This document shows positions 978 to 45,488 of a DNA stretch of 64,000 nucleotides, piece after piece (position 1 is the first letter of the stretch; each line of letters begins with the position of its first letter). The DNA lies in NCBI RefSeq assembly GCF_009931435.1, contig NZ_CP043414.1. One strand, 5' to 3'. This DNA is from Escherichia coli. GTDB taxonomy: Bacteria; Pseudomonadota; Gammaproteobacteria; Enterobacterales; Enterobacteriaceae. The notes below the pieces were generated by a model that was given only the letters and a program-made list of their open reading frames with translations, had not been told where the DNA came from and ran no database searches. The position numbers and the translations under genes were made by a program.

Positions 978-3113
978 TTGCTTAATCCGATCGTTCGTAA
1001 ATTCCAGTACGGCCAACACACCGTGACTCTGGAAACCGGCATGATGGCTCGTCAGGCTACTGCCGCTGTTATGGTTAGCATGGATGACACCGCGGTATTC
1101 GTTACCGTTGTTGGTCAGAAAAAAGCCAAACCAGGTCAGGACTTCTTCCCGCTGACCGTTAACTATCAGGAGCGTACCTACGCTGCTGGTCGTATCCCAG
1201 GTAGCTTCTTCCGTCGTGAAGGCCGCCCAAGCGAAGGCGAAACCTTGATTGCGCGTCTGATTGACCGCCCGATTCGCCCGCTGTTCCCGGAAGGCTTCGT
1301 CAACGAAGTTCAGGTTATCGCCACCGTGGTTTCTGTTAACCCGCAGGTTAACCCGGATATCGTTGCGATGATTGGTGCTTCCGCAGCACTTTCTCTGTCT
1401 GGTATTCCGTTCAATGGTCCGATTGGTGCTGCCCGCGTAGGTTACATCAATGACCAGTACGTACTGAACCCGACTCAGGACGAACTGAAAGAGAGCAAAC
1501 TGGATCTGGTTGTTGCCGGTACAGAAGCTGCCGTGCTGATGGTTGAATCTGAAGCTGAACTGCTGAGCGAAGACCAAATGCTGGGCGCAGTGGTGTTCGG
1601 TCATGAACAACAGCAGGTTGTTATTCAGAACATCAATGAACTGGTGAAAGAAGCCGGTAAACCGCGTTGGGATTGGCAGCCGGAGCCGGTAAACGAAGCG
1701 CTGAACGCGCGCGTTGCTGCGCTGGCTGAAGCTCGTCTGAGCGATGCTTATCGCATCACCGACAAACAAGAGCGTTATGCGCAGGTTGATGTCATCAAAT
1801 CTGAAACCATCGCGACGCTGCTTGCTGAAGATGAAACCCTGGACGAAAACGAACTGGGTGAAATTCTGCACGCTATCGAGAAAAATGTTGTTCGTAGCCG
1901 CGTACTGGCAGGCGAACCGCGTATCGACGGTCGTGAAAAAGATATGATCCGTGGTCTGGATGTGCGTACTGGCGTGCTGCCGCGTACTCACGGTTCTGCG
2001 TTGTTCACCCGTGGTGAAACGCAGGCACTGGTTACCGCAACGCTGGGTACTGCACGTGACGCACAGGTTCTTGATGAACTGATGGGCGAACGTACTGACA
2101 CCTTCCTGTTCCACTACAACTTCCCTCCGTATTCCGTAGGTGAAACTGGCATGGTCGGTTCTCCGAAGCGTCGTGAAATTGGTCACGGTCGTCTGGCGAA
2201 GCGCGGCGTGCTGGCAGTAATGCCGGATATGGACAAATTCCCGTACACCGTACGTGTAGTGTCTGAAATTACCGAATCCAACGGTTCTTCTTCTATGGCT
2301 TCCGTGTGCGGTGCGTCTCTGGCGCTGATGGACGCAGGTGTGCCAATCAAAGCTGCTGTTGCGGGTATCGCAATGGGGCTGGTGAAAGAAGGCGACAACT
2401 ACGTTGTACTGTCTGACATTTTGGGCGACGAAGATCACCTGGGCGATATGGACTTCAAAGTTGCGGGTTCCCGCGACGGTATCTCTGCACTGCAGATGGA
2501 TATCAAAATTGAAGGTATCACCAAAGAGATCATGCAGGTTGCGCTGAATCAAGCTAAAGGTGCGCGTCTGCATATCCTGGGCGTCATGGAGCAGGCGATC
2601 AACGCGCCGCGTGGTGATATCTCTGAGTTTGCACCGCGTATCCATACCATCAAGATCAATCCGGACAAGATCAAAGACGTTATCGGTAAAGGCGGTTCTG
2701 TTATCCGTGCCCTGACCGAAGAAACTGGCACCACCATCGAAATCGAAGATGACGGTACTGTGAAGATCGCAGCGACCGACGGCGAGAAAGCGAAAAACGC
2801 TATTCGTCGTATCGAAGAAATCACCGCAGAAATCGAAGTGGGCCGCGTCTACAATGGTAAAGTGACCCGTATCGTTGACTTTGGCGCGTTTGTTGCCATC
2901 GGCGGCGGTAAAGAAGGTCTGGTCCACATCTCTCAAATCGCCGACAAGCGTGTTGAGAAAGTGACCGACTACCTGCAGATGGGTCAGGAAGTTCCGGTGA
3001 AAGTTCTGGAAGTTGATCGCCAGGGCCGTATCCGTCTGAGCATTAAAGAAGCGACTGAGCAGTCTCAACCTGCTGCAGCACCGGAAGCTCCGGCTGCAGA
3101 ACAGGGCGAGTAA
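978..3113 (+). CDS. pnp: polynucleotide phosphorylase (PNPase), 711 aa, TTG start
   Basis: ORF 891..3113; N-terminus [21 protein letters not shown] begins at the in-frame TTG at 978; RNase PH-like repeats, KH and S1 regions at C-terminus (…[28 protein letters not shown]…). Confidence 0.95.
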
Positions 3114-3123
3114 GGTTGCCATT

Positions 3124-3150
3124 TGCCCTCCGCTGCGGCGGGGGGCTTTT
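3124..3150 (+). terminator. pnp rho-independent terminator
   Basis: gccctccgctgcggcggggggc hairpin followed by tttt just after pnp stop. Confidence 0.75.
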
Positions 3151-3221
3151 AACCGGGCAGGACGCCTTGTTAGCAACCGGGAACAGGACGTTCATTCAAC
3201 CGTGGTCTTCGGGAGTGGGAA

Positions 3222-4106
3222 ATGAAGCCTTTTTTGCGCTGGTGTTTCGTTGCGACAGCACTTACGCTTGCAGGATGCAGTAATACTTCCTGGCGTAAAA
3301 GTGAAGTCCTCGCGGTACCATTGCAACCGACTTTACAGCAGGAAGTGATTCTGGCACGTATGGAACAAATCCTTGCCAGTCGGGCTTTAACCGATGACGA
3401 ACGCGCACAGCTTTTATATGAGCGCGGAGTGTTGTATGATAGTCTCGGTCTGAGGGCATTAGCGCGTAACGATTTTTCGCAAGCGCTGGCAATCCGACCG
3501 GATATGCCGGAAGTATTCAATTACTTAGGCATATATTTAACGCAGGCAGGCAATTTTGATGCTGCCTATGAAGCGTTTGATTCTGTACTTGAGCTTGATC
3601 CAACTTACAACTACGCGCACTTGAATCGCGGGATCGCATTATATTACGGCGGTCGTGACAAGTTAGCGCAAGATGATCTGCTGGCGTTTTATCAAGACGA
3701 TCCCAATGATCCTTTCCGTAGTCTGTGGCTTTATCTCGCCGAGCAGAAGCTCGATGAGAAGCAGGCTAAAGAAGTGTTAAAACAGCACTTCGAAAAATCG
3801 GATAAGGAACAGTGGGGATGGAACATTGTCGAGTTCTACCTGGGCAACATTAGCGAACAAACGTTAATGGAAAGGCTCAAGGCGGACGCAACGGATAACA
3901 CCTCGCTCGCTGAGCATCTCAGTGAAACCAACTTCTATTTAGGTAAGTACTACCTAAGTCTGGGGGATTTGGACAGCGCCACGGCACTGTTCAAACTGGC
4001 GGTTGCCAACAACGTTCATAACTTTGTTGAGCACCGATACGCATTGTTGGAATTATCGCTCCTGGGCCAGGACCAAGATGACCTGGCAGAATCGGACCAG
4101 CAATAG
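3222..4106 (+). CDS. nlpI: TPR-repeat outer-membrane lipoprotein NlpI
   Basis: 294 aa; signal peptide with lipobox LTLAGC; TPR-like repeats; conserved pnp-nlpI-deaD order. Confidence 0.93.
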
Positions 4107-7690: not shown

Positions 7691-8698
7691 CTATCCCAGT
7701 AACTCTTCCTTAACATCCATCGCCAGCTCAAACGAATGCAGGCGCGCCTGGTGATCGAAAATCTGCCCGTTAACCATAATCTCATCCGCGTCGGTTTCGC
7801 GCAGGATCGACTGCAAACCATGACGCACTTTCGCTTTATCACCCACCAGCGACATACTCAGCGCCTGCTGCACGCCATACTGCTCAGACGGTGACCAGAA
7901 CTGATCCATATTTTGAATCGGTGGCGGCAGTTGCCCGGTTTCACCGCGGCGCAGCTTCACAAAGGCTTGCTGCATTGAGGTAAACAGAAATTCAGCGTCG
8001 CGGTTGCTGTCGGCGGCGATAATATTGATGCACACCATCGCATACGGTTTTTCCAGTCGTGCCGACGGTTTGAAGTTGCTGCGATAAAGATGCAGCGCCT
8101 GGAATAGCATATCCGGTGCGAAGTGTGAGGCAAACGCGAACGGCAGACCAAGCTGCGCCGCCAGTTGTGCACTGTAAAGGCTGGAGCCTAATAACCACAC
8201 GGGGATTTTCTCGCCATAGCCTGGTACCGGGCGCACATGCGGATTGGGATCGCGGGCGTCAAACCAGTCCACCAGCTCCGCGACATCGCGGGGGAAATTA
8301 TCAATATCGCCGCTCATATGACGACGTAGAGCCATCATGGTTCGCTGGTCACTACCCGGAGCACGGCCCAGCCCCAAATCGATTCGCCCCGGATAGAGCG
8401 TATTGAGCGTGCCGAACTGTTCGGCGATCACCAACGGTGAGTGGTTTGGTAACATCACGCCGCCAGACCCCAGATGCAGCGTAGTGGTATTCGCCGCCAG
8501 ATAGCCAATCAAAACTGATGTTGCAGCACTGGCAATACCGGTCATATTGTGGTGTTCTGCCAGCCAGTAGCGATGATAGCCGCGCTTTTCAGCCAGACGG
8601 GCGAGGTCGAGAGAGTGGGAGAACGCTTCTCGCGCTGAAGAACCTTCTGGGATGGGGGCCAGATCGAGTAGCGAAAACGCAGTGGTTTTATCAGTCAT
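7691..8698 (-). CDS. yhbW: luciferase-like (LLM-class) flavin-dependent monooxygenase
   Basis: 335 aa ORF; [19 protein letters not shown]...; position after mtr. Confidence 0.85.
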
Positions 8699-16842: not shown

Positions 16843-18836
16843 GATAACTTCCTGTTAATTACGCAATCCGGGTTAGCCGTCAGACTTCCGGTATTACCGT
16901 TGATTTCGAAACCCTGAACCTGGCGCATTTGTGAGAAATGATTTGCCAACGACCAGGCATCAACGCCCATCGCATACATGCGAGCCAGCGAATAATCGTT
17001 ATTCACCGCACTGAGCGCCTGCTGCATTAATGGCAGATTACCGCCCGCCAGCATCGGGATTTCGCTATATTGCAAACCTTCCATTTCCAGACGGAAATCC
17101 GGACCCGCGGTGCCTTGTGCGCTTCGGGAGCTTGCGTACAGCGTTGCACCGCTCTGGCTACCGTTACGCATGGCGATCATCGGTTTGATAAAAGCGATTT
17201 CACCCGGCGTTGCCACAATGTACACCGCATCGACACGACCGCCATTATTGGTGAACTGGTCATAGGTTGGCGTGGTTTGCAGCATTGGATTGTTGGTCGT
17301 TATGCCTGAATCGGTTGTCGCTCTGGGAGTAATCGGGCTACCGGTTAAAGCGATACCAGAACCACCGTTAACTCCCGCGCGTAATTCGCTGGTGGAACCA
17401 AATTTTTGTTGCAAAACGGTACCGCCGCCCAGCTTCTGCCACTCTTGCGCAAACGCATTGGCTACGCGATCGCCCAGCGAACTGCGAGGGATCAGCACCA
17501 GTGGCGCTTGTTTACCCTGGTCACGAATATGACGCGCTGCATCGCGCGCTTCGTCTTCCGGTGAAAGCGCGAAGTAACAAATATTGACGCGGTTTTCGAT
17601 ATTTTCCGGCTGGTTCAGTGCCAGCACGTTCAGCGGGGTGTTGCTTTTCAGTAACTCTTCAACGTTATTTTTCAGCAACGGACCGACCACAATACTCGCG
17701 CCATCCTGCTGAACCTGGTTGAGGATCTGGCTAAGCGGTTGTGATGAGGTATCATAAATTTTCAGCTCTGCGGATGGATTCGCGGGGGCGCTTACCGCCG
17801 CAGTGTTTGCCGCCGGGGCGCTTACAGGCACTGGTTGAGCCGCGGTTTCTTCGCCTGTCAGATCGCTAACCGAGGCTTGTGCCGGGCTGGCAACGCCGTC
17901 AACAGTTTGCTGCTGGGGTTGTTCTGCAACGTCTGCGATTGGTGCGGCAGTTGCCTGTGCCGCCACTGGCTGAGTGCCGATATTTTTCGCCGCTTCAAAG
18001 CCTTGCTGAATAGTGCGGCCAAATACTGCGGCCTGACCATTCAACGGCAATAACAGGGCTATTTTGTTGGTTGACGCTGGTTTAAATGCTTTTACGTTTA
18101 CCAACTGCGTAGGCAGCATTTTCGCGCCCGGGTTGTTCGGATAACGTTTCTGCCAGTCGGCGATCCCAGCTTTCATCATGTCGGGATCGTTACGGTTATC
18201 AAACCAGACGCGCTGCAGATCAAGCCAGCCTTGCAGAATATTTTCGTCGGCGTTGATCACCAGCGTATTCGCCTGGTCCTGAGTCATGGAGGAGAGTGCC
18301 TGCCATGTAGCATCAATATTCTGTTGCTTTTCTTTCGCGCCGAGCAGGGGTTCCTGAGCAATTAAGGCGCGCAGTAAATCAATGGAAGGACGCCCCTGAC
18401 TGGCATCGATTTTTGCCTGCCAGTAACGCGCCTGCTGGTTTTGATCTAAATCGGCAGGTGTGATTTTCGCCAGCAGGGTTTGTGCGCCAGCAAAATCTTT
18501 CTGCGCCAGCTTAATTTCTACTGCCAGAAGAGTTTTCTCGCGACGCTGGTAATCGTTCAGTTCCTGCGGCAGCTGGTTAAACAGCTCCACCGCCTGCCCG
18601 GTTTTACCTTCTTTCACCAGTGCACGAATGGCGAGTAATTGCCAGTTGATCCTGGTATCATCAGCGCTTTGCTGCATCTGCTGAAGATAAAAGGCAGAAT
18701 CAGCCTGCGCCGTGCCCTGCATATAGGCAGTGGACTGATCGGGAGTATGGGTGCCACAACCGGCGAAAATCAGGGCTGCCAGAACAACAGGCAGACAACG
18801 CGCGGCTTTCAAACGAGAAAATGTTGAGGGTACCAT
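16800..18836 (-). CDS. lpoA: penicillin-binding protein 1A activator lipoprotein LpoA (678 aa)
   Basis: ORF 16800..18866; start set at [27 protein letters not shown] (lipobox); N-terminal TPR-like and C-terminal periplasmic-binding-like domains. Confidence 0.9.
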
Positions 18837-18900
18837 AATGTATCCAGTGATATTTTTTTTACGCAATGCTCAATATTAAATCGGCAATACGGACGACACA

Positions 18901-19764
18901 ATGAAACAACACCAATCGGCGGATAATTCTCAGGGCCAGCTTTACATTGTACCGACGCCAATCGGCAATCTGGCAGATATCACCCAGCGTGCGTTGGAGG
19001 TTTTACAGGCCGTTGATCTGATTGCCGCCGAGGATACGCGTCATACCGGTTTACTGCTGCAACATTTTGGAATTAACGCCAGGTTGTTCGCCTTGCACGA
19101 CCATAACGAACAACAGAAAGCCGAAACGTTACTGGCGAAGCTGCAGGAAGGGCAAAACATTGCGCTGGTGTCCGATGCCGGAACGCCACTAATTAACGAT
19201 CCCGGCTATCATCTGGTGCGTACCTGCCGAGAAGCGGGGATTCGCGTGGTGCCACTACCGGGGCCGTGTGCTGCTATCACTGCATTAAGTGCTGCGGGTT
19301 TACCATCCGATCGTTTTTGTTATGAAGGCTTTTTACCTGCCAAATCAAAAGGCCGCCGTGATGCGCTAAAAGCCATTGAAGCGGAGCCGCGCACGCTGAT
19401 TTTTTATGAATCGACCCACCGTCTGTTAGATAGCCTGGAAGATATCGTTGCGGTATTAGGCGAATCCCGCTACGTCGTTCTGGCGCGTGAGCTGACCAAA
19501 ACCTGGGAAACCATTCACGGCGCGCCCGTTGGCGAGCTGCTGGCGTGGGTCAAAGAAGATGAAAACCGTCGCAAAGGTGAAATGGTGCTGATTGTTGAAG
19601 GCCATAAAGCACAGGAAGAAGACTTACCTGCCGATGCCCTGCGCACGCTGGCGTTGTTACAGGCTGAGCTTCCGCTGAAGAAAGCGGCGGCGCTGGCGGC
19701 AGAGATTCACGGCGTGAAAAAAAACGCGCTGTATAAGTATGCGCTGGAACAGCAGGGGGAGTGA
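18901..19764 (+). CDS. rsmI: 16S rRNA (cytidine1402-2'-O)-methyltransferase RsmI
   Basis: 287 aa; tetrapyrrole-methylase-like fold; divergent from lpoA. Confidence 0.9.
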
Positions 19765-24924: not shown

Positions 24925-25050
24925 CTTGCCTTTCGTTTCATTTCACTTGGTGATTCGTTTCGTTGATTAAAATCTATAGAAAAGAAATCGAAAGTTCAAT
25001 GGAGAAAAAAGAAATAAAACGAAATTTGTGATCGTTGAAAGAAAAGACAA
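24925..25050. promoter_or_regulatory. agaS promoter region with clustered AgaR-operator-like TTTC/GAAA-rich motifs
   Basis: ctttcgtttcatttc, attcgtttcgttg, gaaatcgaaag, gaaataaaacgaaat seen upstream of agaS. Confidence 0.55.
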
Positions 25051-30314: not shown

Positions 30315-30478
30315 ATAAAAATAAAACGAAAGATAATAGTTTTCTGATCTGATTCACAAAAGAAACATAATGAAAGTCACTGAAACGAGAGTAGCTTGCG
30401 TCAATGGGCAAGGTGGGCTTGCATTTGCTCAATAGAAAGGCGTAAATAGGCAAAACGAAATGAAACGAAAGTTTTACG
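30315..30478. promoter_or_regulatory. divergent kbaZ / agaR promoter region with AgaR operator-like motifs
   Basis: aaataaaacgaaag and aacgaaatgaaacgaaag motifs in the intergenic gap. Confidence 0.6.
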
Positions 30479-30490
30479 AAAGGACTTACT

Positions 30491-31300
30491 ATGAGTAATA
30501 CCGACGCTTCAGGCGAGAAGCGAGTGACAGGCACCAGCGAGCGACGAGAACAAATCATTCAGCGCCTGCGACAGCAAGGGAGTGTGCAGGTTAACGATCT
30601 GTCGGCATTGTATGGCGTATCTACTGTGACGATCCGCAACGATCTGGCTTTTCTGGAAAAGCAGGGGATCGCTGTGCGGGCCTATGGCGGCGCGTTGATC
30701 TGCGATAGCACGACGCCGTCAGTCGAGCCATCAGTGGAAGATAAAAGCGCGCTGAACACTGCGATGAAACGCAGCGTTGCGAAAGCTGCCGTTGAGTTGA
30801 TTCAGCCAGGTCATCGGGTGATCCTCGATTCCGGGACCACCACGTTTGAGATTGCTCGTCTGATGCGCAAGCACACCGACGTAATTGCGATGACCAATGG
30901 TATGAACGTAGCCAATGCACTGCTGGAAGCAGAAGGCGTTGAACTTCTTATGACCGGCGGGCATCTGCGGCGTCAGTCGCAATCTTTTTACGGCGATCAG
31001 GCTGAACAATCGCTACAAAATTACCACTTTGATATGCTTTTTCTCGGCGTAGATGCGATCGATCTGGAGCGCGGCGTCAGCACGCATAATGAAGATGAAG
31101 CCCGTTTAAACCGTCGGATGTGCGAAGTTGCGGAACGGATCATTGTGGTCACCGATTCCAGTAAGTTCAACCGTTCCAGTTTACATAAGATCATTGATAC
31201 TCAACGTATCGACATGATCATTGTTGATGAAGGCATTCCTGCGGATAGTCTGGAAGGCCTGCGAAAGGCTGGGGTTGAAGTGATTCTGGTCGGGGAGTGA
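30491..31300 (+). CDS. agaR: DeoR-family transcriptional repressor of the aga operons
   Basis: 269 aa; N-terminal HTH (…[17 protein letters not shown]…) and DeoR sugar-phosphate-binding C-domain. Confidence 0.9.
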
Positions 31301-31589
31301 GAAATGGCGCCCGTAGCTCAACACGGATGTGTTCGGCGGGCATTGTTCACTGACCTTTTACAGCCTGTTTTCTGCTCAAATTAGAAACTTCAGCAAAGGT
31401 AATGCAAATGCATTATTAACAGCAGAAAGCGCCAGAACCAACGAAAAAAGAGAGCATGTTTCCCATTTTGCGAGGCGCTTTCCAAATCACCCGCTCAGTC
31501 CCCTCGCGTTGCAGTGCTAAAAGCACTATTTTGCAAATTTGTGACCTTCTTCACTCTCCCAAAAGGCGGTGATCTCACGGTGGGGATCC

Positions 31590-31815
31590 ACTTTCTGCTT
31601 TCGCTTTTCTGCCGTTAGCACTCGCTATTTCGGCATCTCTTCTTTTCACTTTTTCAGTTTGTCATTTTCATTTGCGGTCAACCGAAAGTTCTGGAGTCGA
31701 TTTTTCCAGGTTTCAACGCCGTTGTCGCGTTCACAAATTCACTTCTTTTCTTCTGATGTAATGCATTCAAAAGAAAATGAAAGCTGCAAAATGCAAGAAT
31801 GCAACGAAATACTTT
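31590..31815. promoter_or_regulatory. long leader of the second DeoR gene, rich in TTTC/GAAA repeats (candidate operator array)
   Basis: ctttctgctttcgcttttctgcc, tcttttcactttttcagtttgtcattttcatttgcgg, gaaaatgaaagctg; motif class resembles the aga operators. Confidence 0.4.
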
Positions 31816-31832
31816 TTCAGGGAGCGATAAAC

Positions 31833-32603
31833 ATGCTAGATAGCCTAAGACGCCGCGAACAAATCATTGATTTGTTATGTGCCCAGGGAAGCGTACGCGT
31901 TGAGCCGCTCAGCATCCATTTTGGTGTCTCATCGGTCACGATCCGCAATGACTTACGGTATCTGGAGCAAAAAGGTTGCGTCATGCGTTCCTATGGCGGT
32001 GCCGTGTTGAATCAACACTTTGCGCTCGACAGACCCTTGCAGGATAAAGATCGCCTTAATCGTGATGTTAAAGTGCGAATTGCCGAAAAAGCGGCCAGTT
32101 TTGTCAAAGATGGCGATACATTAATTATCGATTCTGGTTCAACGACCACGCTAATTCCCGCTTCGCTCAAAGGGCGTCGGGATTTAGTCGTCATGACGAA
32201 TGCCTTGAATATCGCCTGGGAAATGGCCAGTTTTGAACGGGTGGATGTTATGATCCTTGGTGGAAATGTTCGCCAGAGCGTCTACTCCCTGTATGGGCCT
32301 TCGGCAGAACAACAACTCCGGCAGTATCGCTTTGATAAGCTGTTTTTGGGCGTGGACGGCTTTTGCCTTGAAGCAGGGATTACCACACCACATCCGGGTG
32401 AGGCACATCTGAACCAGGTGATGTGCCAGGTTGCGCAGGAAATTACTGTTGTCGCGGACTCCAGTAAATTTGGCCGCAAAAGCTTCTGTATGATCGGTGA
32501 AGTGAGCGAGATAGATCGACTGATTACCGATAGCGGTATTCCGGAGAATTACAAAGCAGCATTAACGCAAATGGGTGTGGAAGTTGTGATTGCTGATGAG
32601 TGA
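31833..32603 (+). CDS. DeoR-family transcriptional regulator, AgaR paralogue (256 aa)
   Basis: ORF 31569..32603; start set at MLDSLRRREQIIDLL preceded by GGAG; alignable by eye with AgaR along its length (…VTIRNDL..LE.KG…YGGA…DSG.TT…FLGVD…). Confidence 0.8.
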   Translation: MLDSLRRREQIIDLLCAQGSVRVEPLSIHFGVSSVTIRNDLRYLEQKGCVMRSYGGAVLNQHFALDRPLQDKDRLNRDVKVRIAEKAASFVKDGDTLIIDSGSTTTLIPASLKGRRDLVVMTNALNIAWEMASFERVDVMILGGNVRQSVYSLYGPSAEQQLRQYRFDKLFLGVDGFCLEAGITTPHPGEAHLNQVMCQVAQEITVVADSSKFGRKSFCMIGEVSEIDRLITDSGIPENYKAALTQMGVEVVIADE

Positions 32604-32647: not shown

Positions 32648-33559
32648 TCAGGTTGCAAGTTCGATTTGCAGCAACGCCGCGCCTCGTACACCGCTCGTTG
32701 CTCCGTGAATCGCAGAAAATACGCGCGCAGGTTCCAGTCCAGGAAGAAGATAACGCGTCATAGCTTTCGGCAATAACGTGTAAATTTCTTTGAAGTTAGA
32801 CACACCGCCGCCAAGAACAAATGCATCTACGTCGAGAATATGCTGCAACTGTGCCAGCGTACAACCAACCATATCTATCCAGGCGCTAATGGTGGTGATG
32901 GCACTGGGAACGCCACGTTGATGATTTTCTAACAATGTCTCCATAGTGATTTGCTCACCGCTGAAATGCTTATGTAACCAGAGCAAGCCAGGACCGGACT
33001 GGTAGCGTTCCAGGCACCCTTGCAAACCGCAGCCGCATTGTAATTCAGGCAGGTTATAGCGCCGCGTAAATGTCGCCGGGAGCGGTAAATGGCCAAACTC
33101 GCAGGCCATACGGTTACGGCCACGGTACAACTGGCCATCAATAACTAATCCCCCGCCCATACCCGTGCCGATAATCGCGCCAAAGATCCGACTATATTGA
33201 CGAGCTTGATCGGTATGCGCTTCTGATAGGGCGAAGCAGCAGCAGTCATTATCCATTATTACCGGGCGGTTAAGGCGATTTGCCAGATCGGTTAACACCT
33301 GGCGTCCGGTCAGGCAGGGAACGTTAGAAGACAACAGTTTACCGGTGTGCCGATCCATAACGCCGGGCATCCCGATACCTATTTTGCCTTGCGTACCCGT
33401 GGCCCAGTCAGCGGTATCAATCAGAGACACAAATGTGGATAGAAAAAGCGCGTAATCCTGAACAGGCGTAGCTACCCGCTTGCGCCAGCAAATTTGTAAA
33501 TCCTGATCAAAGGCGACTATCTCTGTTTTGGTTCCACCAATATCAACACCGTAAAACAT
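32648..33559 (-). CDS. ROK-family sugar kinase (NagK-like N-acetylhexosamine kinase candidate), 303 aa
   Basis: N-terminal GVDIGGTK ATP motif; ROK zinc motif CGCGLQGCLERY; same length as the NagK family. Confidence 0.8.
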   Translation of the reverse strand: MFYGVDIGGTKTEIVAFDQDLQICWRKRVATPVQDYALFLSTFVSLIDTADWATGTQGKIGIGMPGVMDRHTGKLLSSNVPCLTGRQVLTDLANRLNRPVIMDNDCCCFALSEAHTDQARQYSRIFGAIIGTGMGGGLVIDGQLYRGRNRMACEFGHLPLPATFTRRYNLPELQCGCGLQGCLERYQSGPGLLWLHKHFSGEQITMETLLENHQRGVPSAITTISAWIDMVGCTLAQLQHILDVDAFVLGGGVSNFKEIYTLLPKAMTRYLLPGLEPARVFSAIHGATSGVRGAALLQIELAT

Positions 33560-33577
33560 CGCTCATCTCCTTTGGTT

Positions 33578-34834
33578 TCACAGCACAACCAGGGTATTTT
33601 CCTTGCGAGCGCGTTCGGCGGCAAAGACCATTAAATGACTTTCGAGCGATTCATCTGGTCCTGAAAGGATCATCGCTCGATCGTCAGCCATCACGGCATG
33701 GATAAAGCTGTCCATCAGATAGTAATCACCACCACCGTGCCCTCCCATTTGGGTGTGAGTGCCTGCGTTTTTCTCTTCAACGGTGTAAATAGTTTCCTGG
33801 TCGGTGAGAAAATCAAAACACCGAATGGTGTTGCCATCGCCTTCCAGATAACCTTTCGAACCGAAAACTCGGGTTTTGCGATCCTCCATTTTCGTAAAGG
33901 CTGTCATTGTAAAAGTGACGCTCTGCTGATGCGCAAACTGCATGTTTACCACTTGATGATCAACAACATCGTTATCGCAGCAATAAACACAGCGACCATA
34001 GGGGCCGTCACGCAGGGCCTGACGAATATTCTCTTCAGTAGGATTTGGTGTTAACACGTGGCGAAAGTGAAACGTACATTTATGGGCTTCGCCAGCATAA
34101 ATTTTGCATGCGGACCACGGGCAGGTCGCTTCTGCCTGGCAATCGAGACAGCGTTCGGCTGCGCCTTCAGGTTGGTTTTGTTTTACAAAATGGTTGAGCC
34201 CGCCAAATGAGCTAACGGTTTTACAGTTGTCTCCCATGATGTAGCGGATCCAGTCCAGATCGTGGCAGGACTTTTGTAACAACATAAATGATGATTCAGC
34301 CTCGTTGCGCCAGTTACCACGCACAAAAGAGTGTGCCTGGTGCCAGTAACCGACGGGTTCGAGATGCTGCATACTGATAATGTCGCCAATGATGCCGCTG
34401 TCGAGTAAGGATTTGAGTTTTTGTGTATATCGGGTGTAACGAAGAACGTGTGCGACGGCTAATAAGACATTATTGCGTTTGACGGCATCAATGATAATGC
34501 GGCAATCGTGCTCTGTTGGCGCGAGCGGTTTTTCCAACAGAATGTGATAACCGAGATCGGCAAAAGCGACGGCCGGATCTCTATGCATATTGTCTTGCGT
34601 ACAAATAAGTACAGCATCAGCCATTTTTGGCCGAGCAGCAGCCTCTTTCCAGTTGCTAAAAATATTATCTGTCGGGATCGTATGCCGGGACACAACTTGC
34701 TCGCGGTAAGCCTCTCTAGGTTCAGCAACACCTACCACTTGCATTCTGTCCGGATGCTCAAGGGCATAGCGGGAATATATTTCTCCACGTGCGCCTGCAC
34801 CTATTACTAAAACAGTGACTTTATTTTTACTCAT
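33578..34834 (-). CDS. Gfo/Idh/MocA-family NAD(P)-dependent oxidoreductase with Cys-rich insert
   Basis: N-terminal Rossmann VLVIGAGARG and EKP motif (LLEKPLA); internal Cys cluster CLDCQAEATCPWSACK ... CVYCCD. Confidence 0.75.
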   Translation of the reverse strand: MSKNKVTVLVIGAGARGEIYSRYALEHPDRMQVVGVAEPREAYREQVVSRHTIPTDNIFSNWKEAAARPKMADAVLICTQDNMHRDPAVAFADLGYHILLEKPLAPTEHDCRIIIDAVKRNNVLLAVAHVLRYTRYTQKLKSLLDSGIIGDIISMQHLEPVGYWHQAHSFVRGNWRNEAESSFMLLQKSCHDLDWIRYIMGDNCKTVSSFGGLNHFVKQNQPEGAAERCLDCQAEATCPWSACKIYAGEAHKCTFHFRHVLTPNPTEENIRQALRDGPYGRCVYCCDNDVVDHQVVNMQFAHQQSVTFTMTAFTKMEDRKTRVFGSKGYLEGDGNTIRCFDFLTDQETIYTVEEKNAGTHTQMGGHGGGDYYLMDSFIHAVMADDRAMILSGPDESLESHLMVFAAERARKENTLVVL

Positions 34835-34876
34835 ATAAAGAAATACCTTTCTGATAAATTCATCTTAATTGCTACG

Positions 34877-35635
34877 TTATAAATTACGAAAACTAACAAG
34901 ATGAAATCCGTGTTTTTCAATCGCATATTTGAGTGACGGTGTAGTCAGAACCGTAAGTTCTTCCAGCCGTTGATAGCAGTAACTGCTCGACATTAAGTGG
35001 TTATCTACAAATCCAGGGTGACACATAATTTCCAGCGATTTTTCATCACGTTTTATGGCGCTATCGAGGAGTGATAAAAAAAAGTCTTCTGAAATATTAT
35101 TATCGTAGAAATTACTGCTGAATCCCTCACTACTTTTGGCATCCAGCGAATCGATTTTTTTCTCTCGCAGGACAGAATGGTCTATACGTAATGGTAAATT
35201 TTTCTCACGCGCGAACCGCGCGACAACGGGATAAACCTGCGGGAGCATATGAACGCTGTGATGGCTGTCTAAATGGGTGGGCTCCCGTTTAAATACATCA
35301 ATAAAACGTTGATATTGAGAATTCAGTTCCTGTTCAATTTCACCCGTGTTTAATTGCCCTTGCTCCGCGACATCCCAGATCCATTTACCTAATTGGCCTG
35401 CGCGTACCAGCGAAGGCATATCCGTTAAGGCAGCGCCATAGCTCAAAACAAAATGTAACCCGACGCCGAGCTGTGGGGTTTCGGCACTTAAAGAGGCAGC
35501 ATGATCAATTGCCGGAGCATTCATCATCGCAGTTGTTGAGCGAACGACACCATTTCGTACTGCCTCGATAATTCCATAATTAATACCTTTACTTAGTCCA
35601 AAGTCATCCGCATTCACAATTAATAAGCGTTGCAT
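34877..35635 (-). CDS. YdjC/ChbG-family carbohydrate deacetylase
   Basis: MQRLLIVNADDFGLSKGINYGIIEA... and HLDSHH metal-site motif typical of the ChbG/YdjC family. Confidence 0.85.
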   Translation of the reverse strand: MQRLLIVNADDFGLSKGINYGIIEAVRNGVVRSTTAMMNAPAIDHAASLSAETPQLGVGLHFVLSYGAALTDMPSLVRAGQLGKWIWDVAEQGQLNTGEIEQELNSQYQRFIDVFKREPTHLDSHHSVHMLPQVYPVVARFAREKNLPLRIDHSVLREKKIDSLDAKSSEGFSSNFYDNNISEDFFLSLLDSAIKRDEKSLEIMCHPGFVDNHLMSSSYCYQRLEELTVLTTPSLKYAIEKHGFHLVSFRNL

Positions 35636-35647
35636 AAGGCGTCCTTG

Positions 35648-37000
35648 TTATTGATGAGATTGGGTAAGTTCAGCAATGGTGCTGGAAAATTGAGGCAGAT
35701 GTTTTTTATGGGCAATGATCAGTTCACGTACTAATTTTTCAGCGTCGTTATCCGAGGTCATTAGCGGGTTAAGGCACAGAGCCAGCAGCGTATCGTTATA
35801 GTTACCACTTATTGCCGCCCGGGCTGCCGCGATCTCAAAACATTTGATTGAATGAATGAGCCCCAGTACATTTTCGTCAAAATGAGTGAGACGCGGGTGG
35901 GGGGTAACACCGTTATTCCCCAGAATGCAGGTCATTTCAACGGTCCAGTCTTCAGGGATATTTTTTACACTGCCCTTGTGTGGAATATTAACGTAGTGTT
36001 CTGTTTGCGTGTCATTATAAATTGCATTAATAACGGCACAGGCTGCATCTGAATAATACGCACCACCACGCAGCTCCAGTTCTTCAGGTTTTGTATTTAG
36101 TTCTGGGTCCTTATACAGCTCAAATAATTTTTTCTCTAATGCCTGCACGACTTGTGCACGAACGCCATTTTTATAAAATTCCCCCATCTCAATAGCGAGC
36201 ATTTCTTTATGTTTAAAATAGTAACGTAAGTAAGCACAGGGCAGGAGATTAAGTGCCCGAATTAAATTAGGATTGAAGGTTAAACTGTCAATATTTTTGA
36301 CGGTACTTCCTTCAAGCAAACCTTCAACGACGCCATCGAGCAATTCAGCAAAACGTGATTGTCCATTGACCCATACGTCTTTAAGAAAGACCATATGATT
36401 TAAGCCAAATATGTCTATTGAAAGATCATCGTCCGCGCCAAGTTTTAGGGCATTGCAAACGAAGCTCTTCATCCCAATAGGGACATTACAGACACCGATA
36501 AAACGTTTAAATTGGGTATGGCGGTACACGGCTTCAGTAACCATCCCGGCAGGATTGGTAAAATTAATAATCCAGGCATCAGGGCAAAGTTCCTCAACAT
36601 CTTTGATAATATCAAAAACTACTGGAATGGTTCGTAACCCGTTGAATAAACCGCCCGCGCCATTGGTTTCTTGCCCGAGATATCCCTGACTTAGTGGAAT
36701 CAACTCATCCATTTCCCGAGCTTTTAATTGCCCGACCCGAAATTGTGTGGTGACAAAGTGCGCGCCCTGTAATGCAGCGCGACGGTCAAGTGTTTTCACT
36801 ATTTTTAACGGAATGCCAGCTTTTATCACCATCCGCTGACAAAGGTCGAAAATAATGTCCAGCTTTTCTTTGCCTTCTTCAATATCAACTAACCATAATT
36901 CACTGACCGGTAATTCATCGTAGCGTTTTATGAATCCTTCAAGGAGTTCTGGTGTATAGCTACTGCCACCGCCAATAGTAACGATTTTTAAGTTTTTCAT
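35648..37000 (-). CDS. glycoside hydrolase family 4 NAD+/Mn2+-dependent 6-phospho-glycosidase (ChbF-like), 450 aa
   Basis: N-terminal KIVTIGGGSSYTPEL dinucleotide-binding signature and GH4-type core (…FINFTNPAG…CNVPIGM…). Confidence 0.85.
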   Translation of the reverse strand: MKNLKIVTIGGGSSYTPELLEGFIKRYDELPVSELWLVDIEEGKEKLDIIFDLCQRMVIKAGIPLKIVKTLDRRAALQGAHFVTTQFRVGQLKAREMDELIPLSQGYLGQETNGAGGLFNGLRTIPVVFDIIKDVEELCPDAWIINFTNPAGMVTEAVYRHTQFKRFIGVCNVPIGMKSFVCNALKLGADDDLSIDIFGLNHMVFLKDVWVNGQSRFAELLDGVVEGLLEGSTVKNIDSLTFNPNLIRALNLLPCAYLRYYFKHKEMLAIEMGEFYKNGVRAQVVQALEKKLFELYKDPELNTKPEELELRGGAYYSDAACAVINAIYNDTQTEHYVNIPHKGSVKNIPEDWTVEMTCILGNNGVTPHPRLTHFDENVLGLIHSIKCFEIAAARAAISGNYNDTLLALCLNPLMTSDNDAEKLVRELIIAHKKHLPQFSSTIAELTQSHQ

Positions 37001-37077
37001 GTTACTTCCATACTCAATATTAAATTGACTTGTGATGCCATGGTTTTATCTAAACGCTGGCATGATGAAGTGTGCTA

Positions 37078-38439
37078 TTAAAACTTTAATGCATTGGCAA
37101 TGTCTTCTTCGCTTTCTTGTTTAATTATTTCAACTTGTGCTTTGTTTGAGATAATGACAAAGGGAAGATAAACCATTGTGGCAACACCTAAGTTAAAGAG
37201 CGCCAGGAGTAATCCAGCAATGCTACCATTCGAGCTAAAGAACGCATTGAGTCCAGGAGGCATGGTCCAGGGGGCAATATTTGTTGATGGCGGAATAATA
37301 CCCATGTTATAGGCGATTAAGGTAATCCCGGCGAGAATAGGTTGAATCATCACAAACGGGATTAACATAATGGGGTTCATAATGATCGGCAAACCAAATA
37401 AAATAGGTTCGTTGATATTAAAGATACCAGAAGGTAACGCTAATTTAGCAACCTGACGATAATCTTCCCGGCGTGACGCAATGAAAATGGCGAAAATGAG
37501 TCCCAGCGTTGCCCCTGTTCCACCGAGGAACACGTAAGCGTCAAGCATTGGCCCGGTCCAGAAATGGAAGGTTTTTCCTGCTTCCAGTGCCGCTTGTACT
37601 GAACCATATTGTGTATAGGTGGCGATATTCTCCAGTCCCCACGGACCCAACGTGCTGCTTTGCAACGCGGTTAATACTAAGCCGCCGTGGATACCAAAGA
37701 ACCATAACAGGGAATTAAAGACAACGAATGTCCAGCCAACAATACCGCTCATTGACGTTAATGGCGTAGCCAGTGAGGTGATAATGACCTGATGGAAATT
37801 GGTGCCATATATCGACAATATCCCAGACAAACTACCCATAATTAACAGGATGATAAACCCGGGCACCATTGCTGAGAATGAGCGTGATACTGCGGTCGGA
37901 ACACTCGCGGGCAACCGAATCACCCAATTGCGGCGGATAATAAAAGCGAAAATTTCCGCTACAACTAATCCAATGATCATACCAGACAGAATATTGGCGC
38001 CGCCTAACCAGTTTGCACCAATGACATTAGCGGTTTCTCCTGCCTTGAAGGGGGTGACAGTCATAAACGCTGCGACAGAGAGTAAGCCAACGGATAACGA
38101 ATCAACTTTCCGTTCTTCGGCCAACCCCATCCCAATAAAAAAGGGGGTCATGAGTGACATAATGCCCAGCGTGCCATGATAAGCACTGTCACCGACGACG
38201 GTGAAGGCGCTTAAGGTTTTTATGGTCGATGGTTCCAGTCGGACGCCTAATGAATAAAAAAAGGAGCCTTCGCCAAAATCTAAAAAAACGCTATTAATGA
38301 GGACAAATAACGTACCGGCTAACGTTAATGGCATCATACGGATAAAACCGTTTTTTATTGCATTGACGTGAGGTTGTTTCCCTAATTTAACTGCAAAAGG
38401 AAGAATGAGTTTTTCAAGTAACGCCATCACTCCGGGCAT
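37078..38439 (-). CDS. PTS lactose/cellobiose-family EIIC component (ChbC-like)
   Basis: 453-aa polytopic membrane ORF with the lactose/cellobiose-family EIIC motif …[14 protein letters not shown]…. Confidence 0.85.
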
Positions 38440-38508
38440 AAAAATATCCTTATATACCGATTAATGTATCACTGCGACTTTGGTTTTATTAATATCCTGT
38501 TGCTATGG

Positions 38509-38826
38509 TTACTTTTGCTCTTTTTTTATTATGGCGATAGCTGATTTTAGAACACCTAAGCCATCAATTTTTCCATATAACATTGAATCAATAACTTCCA
38601 CTGGCTTTCCTGGTAATAAGCTTTGGATCTCTGATTGCATGTAAGCAATTTGAGGTCCCAATAATATAACATCGGCTTCCGGCCCTTTCTCTGCGGCAAC
38701 AGATTCGGAGAATGCTTCGATAATTACTGGCACATCATATTTTATCGCCTGCACTTTCATTTTTGACACCAGCAGTGATGTTGACATTCCCGCTGAACAA
38801 AATAAGTATATTTTTTTCTTTTCCAT
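38509..38826 (-). CDS. PTS lactose/cellobiose-family EIIB component (ChbB-like), 105 aa
   Basis: ORF 38509..39042; start set at [23 protein letters not shown] (phospho-Cys motif), preceded by GGAG. Confidence 0.8.
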
Positions 38827-39059
38827 AGGGACTCCAGATATATTACGTAATAATATATTTGTCATGCCATGAATGGCATATGAGGCGACTTTAATTAAAA
38901 AGGCACGGATGTTTATATTGATTTCCTGAATGTCGTCTTTTGGTATTAATCTCAAAAATTTCAGGAGCCATTGAATAATCTGGTTTATAGGATTGAATGT
39001 CAAGAGAGTGAAATTGTGGGCGTGTTGTAATAAAAATAGCACGGCTTTCGGTAGGTTTC

Positions 39060-39165
39060 TTTTTTAGCGGAATGAAAAGTACAGGCAAAATGGTAATTGA
39101 ATAAATTAACGTTTTTTCAATAGATTACGTTTTTTTCTGCCTACAGGAATGAAAAAAACAACAAT
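39060..39165 (-). promoter_or_regulatory. putative promoter/operator region of the EIIB-led operon with two GGAATGAAAA repeats
   Basis: gcggaatgaaaagtacagg and acaggaatgaaaaaaacaac about 75 bp apart in AT-rich DNA upstream of the EIIB start. Confidence 0.35.
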
Positions 39166-39211
39166 CTAAAAATACTTTAGATATGTGAGAGTTATCACTT
39201 ACTTTTCGTGG

Positions 39212-39245
39212 GGAAAACGGGGAAACACAGTCTCCCCGTTTTCCG
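39212..39245 (-). terminator. garD rho-independent terminator
   Basis: aaacgggga...tccccgttt hairpin immediately downstream of garD stop. Confidence 0.65.
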
Positions 39246-39259
39246 TTCATGCAAGGCCG

Positions 39260-44246: not shown

Positions 44247-44342
44247 TGACGTCGTGCCCGGATGGCGTATTGCAATCCGGGCCTGGAATCCAGGCCGAAT
44301 AAGAGAAACGCCCTCCGGCGTCATGTGGTAACAGGCATAGGT

Positions 44343-45488
44343 ATGAAAATCGTAATCGCCCCAGACTCTTATAAAGAAAGTTTATCTGCCAGCGAGGTTG
44401 CGCAGGCGATAGAAAAAGGATTTCGGGAAATTTTTCCTGATGCACAGTATGTTTCCGTTCCGGTTGCCGACGGTGGTGAAGGAACGGTGGAAGCCATGAT
44501 TGCAGCCACCCAGGGGGCTGAACGTCACGCCTGGGTTACAGGGCCGCTGGGCGAGAAAGTGAATGCCAGTTGGGGGATCTCCGGCGATGGCAAAACCGCG
44601 TTTATCGAAATGGCGGCGGCCAGTGGGCTGGAACTGGTACCTGCGGAAAAACGCGATCCACTTGTGACCACTTCACGCGGTACTGGCGAATTAATCCTGC
44701 AGGCGCTGGAGAGCGGCGCGACAAACATTATTATCGGCATTGGCGGCAGCGCCACCAACGACGGCGGCGCAGGCATGGTGCAGGCGCTGGGGGCGAAATT
44801 ATGCGATGCCAACGGCAATGAAATTGGTTTTGGCGGCGGTAGCCTTAATACTCTGAATGATATTGATATTTCCGGCCTCGATCCGCGCTTAAAAGATTGT
44901 GCTATTCGCGTCGCTTGTGATGTCACCAATCCGCTGGTGGGCGATAACGGCGCATCGCGCATCTTTGGCCCACAAAAGGGAGCCAGTGAAGCGATGATTG
45001 TCGAGCTGGACAATAACCTCTCTCACTATGCCGATGTCATTAAAAAAGCGCTGCATGTTGATGTGAAAGATGTCCCCGGCGCAGGAGCTGCGGGCGGTAT
45101 GGGCGCGGCGCTGATGGCGTTTCTTGGTGCGGAACTGAAAAGTGGTATTGAAATCGTCACGACGGCGCTGAATCTGGAGGAACATATTCACGATTGTACG
45201 CTGGTGATCACCGGTGAAGGGCGTATTGACAGCCAGAGTATACACGGCAAGGTTCCGATTGGCGTCGCAAACGTGGCGAAAAAGTACCATAAACCGGTGA
45301 TTGGCATTGCGGGTAGCCTGACCAATGATGTTGGCGTTGTACATCAGCATGGCATTGATGCGGTCTTCAGCGTATTGACCAGTATTGGTACGTTGGATGA
45401 AGCATTCCGCGGGGCTTATGACAATATTTACCGTGCTTCACGTAATATCGCCGCGACACTGGCGATTGGAATGCGCAACGCGGGGTGA
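44343..45488 (+). CDS. garK: glycerate 2-kinase (381 aa)
   Basis: ORF 44262..45488; start set at MKIVIAPDSYKESL (glycerate kinase family N-terminus). Confidence 0.9.
   Translation: MKIVIAPDSYKESLSASEVAQAIEKGFREIFPDAQYVSVPVADGGEGTVEAMIAATQGAERHAWVTGPLGEKVNASWGISGDGKTAFIEMAAASGLELVPAEKRDPLVTTSRGTGELILQALESGATNIIIGIGGSATNDGGAGMVQALGAKLCDANGNEIGFGGGSLNTLNDIDISGLDPRLKDCAIRVACDVTNPLVGDNGASRIFGPQKGASEAMIVELDNNLSHYADVIKKALHVDVKDVPGAGAAGGMGAALMAFLGAELKSGIEIVTTALNLEEHIHDCTLVITGEGRIDSQSIHGKVPIGVANVAKKYHKPVIGIAGSLTNDVGVVHQHGIDAVFSVLTSIGTLDEAFRGAYDNIYRASRNIAATLAIGMRNAG

Follow-up and report, generated by a model that had tools for sequence, protein, structure and literature searches.

In the Escherichia coli contig NZ_CP043414.1 (assembly GCF_009931435.1), two adjacent genes for DeoR-type repressors, agaR (30491-31300) and a second gene with its ATG at 31833, are separated by 532 bp of intervening DNA (31301-31832). 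Why is this gap so long, and what does it contain? We addressed the question in a stretch of 64,000 nucleotides around the two genes, here called the window; the gap is treated as the leader of the second gene, whose product is an AgaR-class repressor (the paralogue). The gap is genuine non-coding DNA built from two ordinary, unrelated parts. We put the probability of the following composite reading at about 75%: a deletion scar that carries an orphaned prlF promoter on the left, joined to a conserved control region of the AgaR-class repressor on the right. The most likely function of the right part would be autorepression by the paralogue, modulated by CRP.

Extent and coding potential of the gap

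The NCBI Prokaryotic Genome Annotation Pipeline (PGAP) places no gene in the gap between agaR and the paralogue in three genomes (RMDEC465, R32_14_1F and GF4-3). RMDEC465 and R32_14_1F are strains near-identical to the window, and in both of them the PGAP start of the second DeoR gene is the ATG matching window position 31833, which lies 3' of a Shine-Dalgarno sequence (GGGAG, 31820-31824). The paralogue gene and the sugar locus convergent with it, here called the island, are present in three of 5426 complete E. coli genomes, and two of these three have the 532-bp gap. An earlier analysis of the letters alone (the sequence-only reading) had described the gap as non-coding and unusually long, and both statements were confirmed.

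The same analysis had dismissed a long frame from GTG 31569 as artefactual, and rightly so. The frame reads on in phase into the DeoR gene, and its extension shows no conservation. Citrobacter orthologues begin at the annotated ATG and are 256 aa long, and the indels in the cross-species leader alignment, whose lengths are not multiples of three, break the frame. The GTG 31569 frame is therefore not coding.

The left part is a probable scar of the prlF-yhaV pair

In a megablast comparison of the gap with the 5426 complete E. coli genomes, only leader positions 36-119 were found in 5158 genomes, at 90.5% identity, and the remainder of the gap was carried by three genomes only. The 84 bp concerned (31336-31419) correspond to the first 8 nt of prlF, which are all that remains of the gene, and the 76 bp upstream of it; what is left of the prlF start codon is CAT at 31341-31343. 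K-12-like genomes carry yhaV and prlF, a toxin-antitoxin (TA) pair, between agaR and garD (PMC5120126 Table 1). The two K-12 alignments of the window overlap at 31336-31346.

The order in GF4-3 is agaR, a yhaV pseudogene, prlF, a 488-bp intergenic region, the paralogue, the island genes and garD. The layout of the window is that of GF4-3 without the TA pair, and GCGGGCATT is where the sequence flanking agaR meets the beginning of prlF. Since GF4-3 keeps prlF and the yhaV pseudogene at the same spot, the window is read as carrying a deletion scar. The simplest reading is that prlF-yhaV was deleted between the 9-bp direct repeats GCGGGCATT, in preference to the reverse order, in which a junction lacking the TA pair came first and prlF-yhaV was inserted later. 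The suggestion that the region might partly be the scar of a loss event was thus borne out. GF4-3 is the only genome with both TA pair and island; its yhaV pseudogene has an internal stop (8125-8589 of its locus), and its prlF and TATAAT are intact. It looks like a stage of TA decay preceding the full deletion of the window.

Between 31336 and 31832 the window and GF4-3 differ at 35 of 500 positions. Identity was lower in the prlF remnant (90.5%) than in its flanks (96.4-97.9%). In K-12, the prlF promoter has TTGCAT as -35 and a perfect TATAAT 16 nt apart; the -10 of the window is TCTAAT, in contrast to TATAAT in K-12 and GF4-3, and has lost the A at the second position. Both the changed -10 and the extra divergence of the remnant fit an orphaned, decaying promoter. 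An inverted repeat, TAATGCA-AA-TGCATTA at 31400-31415, is identical in K-12 and overlaps the -35 TTGCAT; from its position it is probably the PrlF/YhaV operator. The sequence-only reading had listed this palindrome beside the TTTC-rich repeats; it is unrelated to the DeoR regulators, being part of the promoter left behind by prlF and occurring in K-12 as well.

At the other end of the interval, K-12 homology to the window resumes exactly at the garD stop codon, which suggests that the K-12 arrangement arose by island loss up to that codon. A hairpin just past the garD stop (39204-39243, AAACGGGGA...TCCCCGTTTT) is common to Citrobacter and unlike the K-12 garD terminator.

The right part is a conserved, probable control region

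The control region adjoins the gene of an AgaR-family repressor. Identity between the paralogue and E. coli AgaR is 44%, and the recognition helix of the paralogue, VSSVTIRNDL, differs from that of AgaR at one of 10 residues; the paralogue shares 75-78% identity with regulators of Hafnia and Photorhabdus. A homologue scan with one genome per species returned 26 loci. The layout was scored over 27 loci, which represent at least five named genera, and 11 representative sequences were used for invariant columns. In Citrobacter and one Enterobacteriaceae isolate, agaR is followed by a gap of 310-324 bp, the paralogue, convergent genes for a ROK kinase and a Gfo/Idh/MocA oxidoreductase, and then an ABC transporter. 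In Hafnia, Photorhabdus and Edaphovirga, the related regulator is the first gene of an aga operon (kbaZ, agaS, phosphotransferase system (PTS) IIB, kbaY). In Citrobacter, what had been described as an inserted locus is a native one that occupies the corresponding place in the agaR-garD interval; the description as an insertion needs that correction.

The leaders of paralogue-type loci are homologous block by block, and multiple CTTTC/GAAAG pentamers are conserved in them (11 representatives, 27 loci). Invariant columns of the representatives coincide with the predicted blocks, a statistic that is descriptive only, since this very alignment served to define the blocks. Of the 17 differences between the window and GF4-3 in 31521-31832, none falls in a predicted element (Table 1). 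In MOD1-EC7003, the DNA to the left of the equivalent of window position 31421 is an unrelated gene end (...GCAGCCTAA) and then a GC hairpin, where the contig ends; the same leader therefore stands in a different left-hand context.

The distal CRP-like site was kept in 27 of 27 loci, at a constant distance of about 50 bp before the distal CTTTCG. Its centre lies at -246.5 in Hafnia, Photorhabdus and Edaphovirga, at -220.5 to -231.5 in the Citrobacter group and at -221.5 in Escherichia, relative to the predicted transcription start; CTTTCG is found at about -171 to -197 across the 27 loci. When the orthologues were inspected visually for a promoter spaced from this CRP-like site as in class I or class II activation, no conserved -10 was seen, and a promoter there was discarded. 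We also discarded the idea that the site serves a divergent aga gene: the 385-aa neighbour in Photorhabdus is a class C beta-lactamase and not agaS, and upstream genes vary by genus. This beta-lactamase gene (AmpC-type) is divergent to the agaR-led aga operon and lies about 400 bp upstream.

In the middle array, TTTC-N14-GAAA at 31666-31687 (about -104 to -86) has a conserved or invariant TTTC and GAAA, and GAAA stands at -85 to -87 in the 27 loci. The spacer is N14 in the window and 13-15 in other lineages, and a strict palindromic operator of fixed spacing is therefore not claimed. A CRP-like site at -41.5 was present in 21 of the 27 loci, namely all Hafnia, Photorhabdus and Edaphovirga and four Citrobacter, with scores of 8-9/10. 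Its right part in the window is TCACAA.TTC at 31731-31740, in which CACAA is invariant in the 11 representatives.

A two-hexamer -35/-10 scan found no promoter in the leader, and a classic -35/-10 promoter was rejected on this basis. The promoter is seen only as the conserved extended -10 TGATGTAAT, with which no usable -35 is associated. Transcription would start near 31769. The proximal operator-like site, AAAAG-N5-GAAAG, begins 7 nt past the extended -10 and overlaps this predicted start.

Repeat statistics and relation to AgaR operators

The repeat strings quoted in the sequence-only reading were all found (31591-31613, 31640-31676 and 31773-31786). TTTC/GAAA occurred 10 times in the 150 bp at 31566-31715, compared to a window mean of 1.84 per 150 bp (SD 1.43). 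This density ranks second in the 64-kb window: the region upstream of agaS is higher, with 12, and the kbaZ-agaR intergenic region has 9. A fourth peak (44303-44452) lies at the start of a 408-aa open reading frame (ORF; 44262-45488) downstream of the gar genes, which is probably garK (glycerate kinase); this peak was treated as chance. TTTTC/GAAAA was observed 8 times in the leader versus 1.2 expected from the window background. Compared to dinucleotide-preserving shuffles of the leader, TTTC/GAAA occurred 15 times versus 9.7 ± 2.3, a count reached by 21 of 1000 shuffles. Since this excess is modest, conservation across genera, and not the counts, is the decisive evidence.

Patterns with fixed spacing were more selective. 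Exact CTTTC-N6-TTTC occurred 7 times in 64 kb versus 0.74 expected, five times at aga promoters and once at the operon-side cassette described below. Exact TGTGA-N6-TCAC had two sites only in 64 kb, at 31540 and 39184, and all three matches to TTTC-N14-GAAA in the window lie inside the two island control regions. At the aga promoters, the inverted pairs are TTTC-N17-GAAA (24958-24982 and 30341-30365), in contrast to N14 in the island cassettes; pair spacing may possibly discriminate between the two AgaR-class repressors, on small numbers.

A 24-nt operator consensus for E. coli AgaR, WRMMTTTCRTTTYRTTTYNYTTKK, was reportedly given by Ray and Larson in 2004. This consensus was scanned at up to 3 mismatches, and gave five matches, all at aga promoters, with none in the leader. 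Canonical AgaR operators in the leader were rejected on this result, and the leader sites are therefore of the paralogue's own lineage. The shorter core TTTCRTTTYRTTTY matches leader positions 31769-31782 with one mismatch. When CTTTC-N6-TTTC or TTTCRTTTYRTTTY was sought at up to one mismatch, the proximal site was the sole match in the island-derived part of the leader; a second CTTTC-N6-TTTC match in the leader, at 31384-31398, is inside the prlF remnant and is unconserved. The sequence-only reading had described the repeats as being of the same flavour as AgaR operators. As regards the CTTTC core, which is common to both systems and invariant in orthologous leaders, and the AgaR-class gene downstream with its near-identical recognition helix, that description stands; as regards the 24-nt consensus, it does not.

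The sister cassette and the island genes

A control cassette with the same motifs precedes the convergent sugar operon next to garD (Table 1). It is kept in Citrobacter and Escherichia, at distances nearly those of the leader. The locus at 32648-39042 encodes a ROK kinase, a Gfo/Idh/MocA oxidoreductase, ChbG, a GH4 glycosidase, and PTS IIC and IIB. Its constant core is the ROK kinase and the 418-aa oxidoreductase, which are combined with one of two alternative uptake modules. The window, RMDEC465, R32_14_1F and GF4-3 have a PTS module (PTS IIB/IIC, GH4 6-phospho-beta-glucosidase and ChbG), and Citrobacter and Escherichia sp. MOD1-EC7003 an ABC-transporter module. The PTS variant (window, GF4-3) and the ABC variant cease to be homologous about 25 nt past the predicted operon start, which lies near 38968 on the minus strand; the transporter/hydrolase module was therefore swapped behind a retained promoter.

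The chb-like PTS (37078-38826) consists of IIC and IIB genes, with no gene for a ChbA-like IIA in the island, and would need a IIA protein from elsewhere. The Gfo/Idh/MocA protein (33578-34834, minus strand) is distant from solved structures; the best match was YjhC (6o15, E = 9e-17), followed by weaker matches to levoglucosan and glycoside 3-dehydrogenase-type enzymes. In RMDEC465, agaB has an internal stop (2905-3381) and the chbC-like IIC gene is frameshifted (17777-19137; coordinates of its locus); the IIC gene of the window is intact, with 453 aa. A weak match to a fluoride riboswitch at 33233-33293 (minus strand; E = 0.011, with 21.5 bits where the gathering score is 34) falls within the coding sequence of the ROK kinase and is almost certainly due to chance.

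Table 1. Features of the gap, the paralogue gene and the operon-side cassette, in window coordinates. Negative positions are relative to the predicted transcription start.
Feature	Position	Strand	Remarks
agaR 3' flank	31301-31335	+	Common to the agaR-yhaV spacer of K-12 and GF4-3 (homology)
Deletion junction GCGGGCATT, 9-bp repeat	31336-31344		Flanks the TA pair on both sides in GF4-3
Orphaned prlF 5' untranslated region (UTR) and promoter	31345-31419	-	90.5% identity to prlF upstream region
prlF promoter hexamers	-35 TTGCAT 31407-31402; -10 31385-31380	-	Read from the sequence
Spacer	31420-31520		Common to island-bearing Escherichia (GF4-3, MOD1-EC7003); weakly similar to K-12 garD 3' spacer; contains inverted repeat 31425-31433/31474-31482
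Distal CRP-like site TGTGACCTTCTTCACT	31540-31555		9/10 core positions; centre about -221.5 from predicted start
Distal operator-like pentamers	CTTTC 31591-31595; CTTTCG 31598-31603 (about -171); CTTTTC 31604-31609	+	CTTTCG invariant in 11 representatives
Middle operator-like array	31641-31688		TTTC at 31644, 31652 and 31666; inverted CGAAAG 31683-31688
CRP-like site remnant, centre -41.5	31720-31735		Right half TCACA perfect; left half CGTTG degenerate
Extended -10 TGATGTAAT	31754-31762	+	-15 to -7; TGnT[GT]TAAT in 27/27 loci, invariant columns
Proximal operator-like AAAAG-N5-GAAAG (CTTTCATTTTCTTTT on minus strand)	31769-31783	-	About +1 to +15; GAAAG invariant
AgaR-class DeoR repressor (paralogue), 256 aa	31833-32603	+	NCBIfam NF040755, 365 bits (cutoff 260)
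Putative control cassette of convergent sugar operon next to garD	38975-39199 (region 38969-39259)	-	Motifs, conservation
Operon-side CRP-like site	39184-39199	-	Centre -223.5; exact TGTGA-N6-TCAC
Operon-side TTTC-N14-GAAA	39056-39077	-	TTTC -109, GAAA -91
Operon-side CTTTCGGTAGGTTTC, exact CTTTC-N6-TTTC	39045-39059	-	
Operon-side predicted promoter TTGACA-17-GATTAT	39003-38975	-	

Proposed mechanism

Homology, conservation, motif positions and the deletion junction were observed directly; beyond these, we infer a model in which transcription would start near 31769 from the extended -10. The paralogue, probably as an oligomer, would bind the CTTTC/GAAAG pentamers at 31769-31783, 31666-31687 and 31591-31603. 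From the site over the start it would block RNA polymerase and repress its own gene by occlusion, and the upstream sites would add cooperativity, probably through DNA loops that connect them. A sugar or sugar phosphate arising from the substrate of the adjacent operon would release the paralogue. Catabolite control by CRP would act through the -41.5 site, weak in the window, and the strong distal site, whose role may be architectural. The sister cassette, which shares motifs and geometry with the leader, would control the convergent operon. The control region at about 31521-31832 travels with the paralogue gene.

AgaR represses the agaZ and agaS promoters and autoregulates, according to the account that PMC4694137 gives of Ray and Larson 2004. 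With AgaR positioned at +1, transcription is likewise repressed (PMC8667592). Because AgaR autoregulation is known, the proposed control logic is the known one.

Alternative explanations

Several observations weigh against autorepression by the paralogue with CRP modulation. The TTTC excess over dinucleotide shuffles of the leader is modest (p approximately 0.02), CTTTC alone is not significantly enriched over the same shuffles, and the scan of the leader with the 24-nt AgaR consensus at up to 3 mismatches was negative. The upstream TTTC units are irregular, at 6-8 bp, as opposed to the 5/10-bp register of the aga operators. The -41.5 CRP-like site of the window is a half-site with a score below 8/10, and for the distal CRP-like site, some 220 bp from the predicted start, no -10 spaced for class I or class II activation was seen. 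The element list and the conservation score, moreover, come from one alignment, so that the statistic is descriptive.

A different reading of the same sites is that canonical AgaR binds them, alone or in addition, so that the status of N-acetylgalactosamine (GalNAc) and galactosamine (GalN) would control the paralogue and its locus by cross-regulation. The core pentamer and a 10-bp spacing are common to both systems, the recognition helices are nearly the same, and agaR and the paralogue are adjacent in Citrobacter and Escherichia. In genomes with both regulators, the proximal site is CTTTC(A/G)TTTTCTTTT, nearer to the aga pattern TTTC-R-TTTY-R-TTTY than the Photorhabdus CTTTC(C/T)CTCTCTTTC. 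However, at up to 3 mismatches the 24-nt consensus separates the leader (no site) from the aga promoters (five), as does inverted-pair spacing (N14 versus N17). Irrespective of which genes adjoin it, a paralogue-type gene is accompanied by the leader elements in Hafnia, Photorhabdus and Edaphovirga, and the elements therefore track the paralogue-type regulator. We regard control by canonical AgaR as unlikely, though it is the most probable of the alternatives.

Could the leader instead function at the RNA level, whether through a riboswitch or small RNA or through a terminator or attenuator at 31579-31592 with the T-rich tract, the TTTC tracts being U-rich RNA? A weak terminator-like hairpin does lie at 31579-31592, just before the distal pentamers, and its Citrobacter counterpart, just after agaR, is a clean GC hairpin followed by TTTCGTTTTTTT. 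A small hairpin at about 31513-31527 starts at the right end of the spacer and extends slightly beyond 31520 (31500-31545, fold z = -2.3). Yet conservation of the hairpin at 31579-31592 does not extend to Hafnia or Photorhabdus, where the adjacent CTTTCG is invariant, and GAAAG is conserved in both orientations, which suits DNA-binding sites. A search of the gap against Rfam gave no match at E = 1 or better, and no fold other than the hairpin at about 31513-31527 departed from shuffles, with z from -0.5 to +1.0: +0.2 for 31555-31615, +1.0 for the predicted 5' UTR, and -0.5 for a weak GC hairpin at 31303-31347 whose left arm is the agaR 3' flank (-15.9 kcal/mol, not significant). The idea of a small RNA in the leader thus found no support, a riboswitch was likewise rejected, and an RNA element of any of these kinds appears very improbable. 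Least probable of all is that the repeats are chance T/C-rich low complexity in a decaying scar, or belong to a hidden ORF, either the GTG 31569 extension or a 63-aa frame at 31329-31520. The left 120 bp are truly a decaying scar, and the result for CTTTC alone agrees with chance, but the blocks are invariant in at least five named genera and lie at fixed distances from the start codon. As for coding, the extension is absent from Citrobacter orthologues and its frame is broken by indels, the 63-aa frame overlaps the prlF promoter remnant, a stretch that is intergenic in K-12, and PGAP leaves the gap without a gene in all three genomes.

Significance

The composite reading accounts for the long gap without anything exotic and corrects two misreadings: the palindrome belongs to the lost TA pair, and the long frame is non-coding. 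From conservation in at least five named genera, it offers base-level predictions of operators, CRP sites and a promoter for an unstudied AgaR-class regulator. The agaR-garD interval provides a natural series, with the TA pair only in K-12, the TA pair and the island in GF4-3, and the island only in the window. The analysis also flags a sugar locus, rare in E. coli, with a possible interaction between its regulator and the GalNAc system.

A broader and decidedly speculative proposal is that the regulator and the paired CRP/CTTTC cassettes form a portable module that would have been copied from an aga operon and would now govern an uncharacterised locus for amino sugars or beta-glycosides. Its genes for uptake and hydrolysis would have been swapped exactly downstream of the retained promoter (ABC in Citrobacter and MOD1-EC7003; PTS IIB/IIC, GH4 and ChbG in the window), and the shared CTTTC half-site would give rise to cross-talk that ties the locus hierarchically to GalNAc/GalN catabolism.

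Comparison with known systems

The left part of the gap resembles the prlF-yhaV promoter/operator of K-12, with 90.5% identity over 31336-31419 including the inverted repeat over the -35. It differs in that neither the toxin nor the antitoxin gene follows in the window and in its -10 (TCTAAT in place of TATAAT).

For the right part, the deo operon, under DeoR, and the glp regulon, under GlpR, provide one model. Both combine dispersed operators with CRP, and oligomeric repressors bind cooperatively and form loops. The leader likewise has several operator-like sites tens to hundreds of bp apart together with CRP-like sites; the half-site sequence is different, and looping and oligomeric state would apply here by analogy.

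The AgaR operators of K-12 (agaZ (kbaZ), agaR and agaS) are another. In both systems, the gene of an AgaR-class DeoR protein lies beside its own control region, multiple CTTTC/GAAAG pentamers occur, with a pair 10 bp apart over the start (here predicted), CRP-like sites are present, and autoregulation is the expected logic. AgaR motifs in Proteobacteria are said to be CTTTC in multiple copies and various arrangements, as described by Leyn et al. in 2012. The regulator of the window departs from K-12 AgaR in sequence (44% identity), in the 24-nt consensus, unmatched in the leader at up to 3 mismatches, and in inverted-pair spacing (N14 in the leader, N17 at the aga promoters), and its uncharacterised locus consists of non-aga genes (ROK kinase, Gfo/Idh/MocA oxidoreductase, transporter).

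Further counterparts are the leaders of the agaR-kbaZ-agaS-PTS-kbaY operons of Hafnia, Photorhabdus and Edaphovirga. There the regulator heads a true aga operon, whereas the paralogue of the window is monocistronic and convergent with another sugar operon; the window has a degenerate CRP-like site at -41.5, and the distal CRP-like site is 25 bp nearer to the promoter (-221.5 versus -246.5). Each element has its homologue: the distal CRP-like site, CTTTCG, TTTC...GAAA, the -41.5 CRP-like site, TGnTGTAAT, GAAAG-N5-GAAAG and the Shine-Dalgarno sequence are common to these leaders and that of the window.

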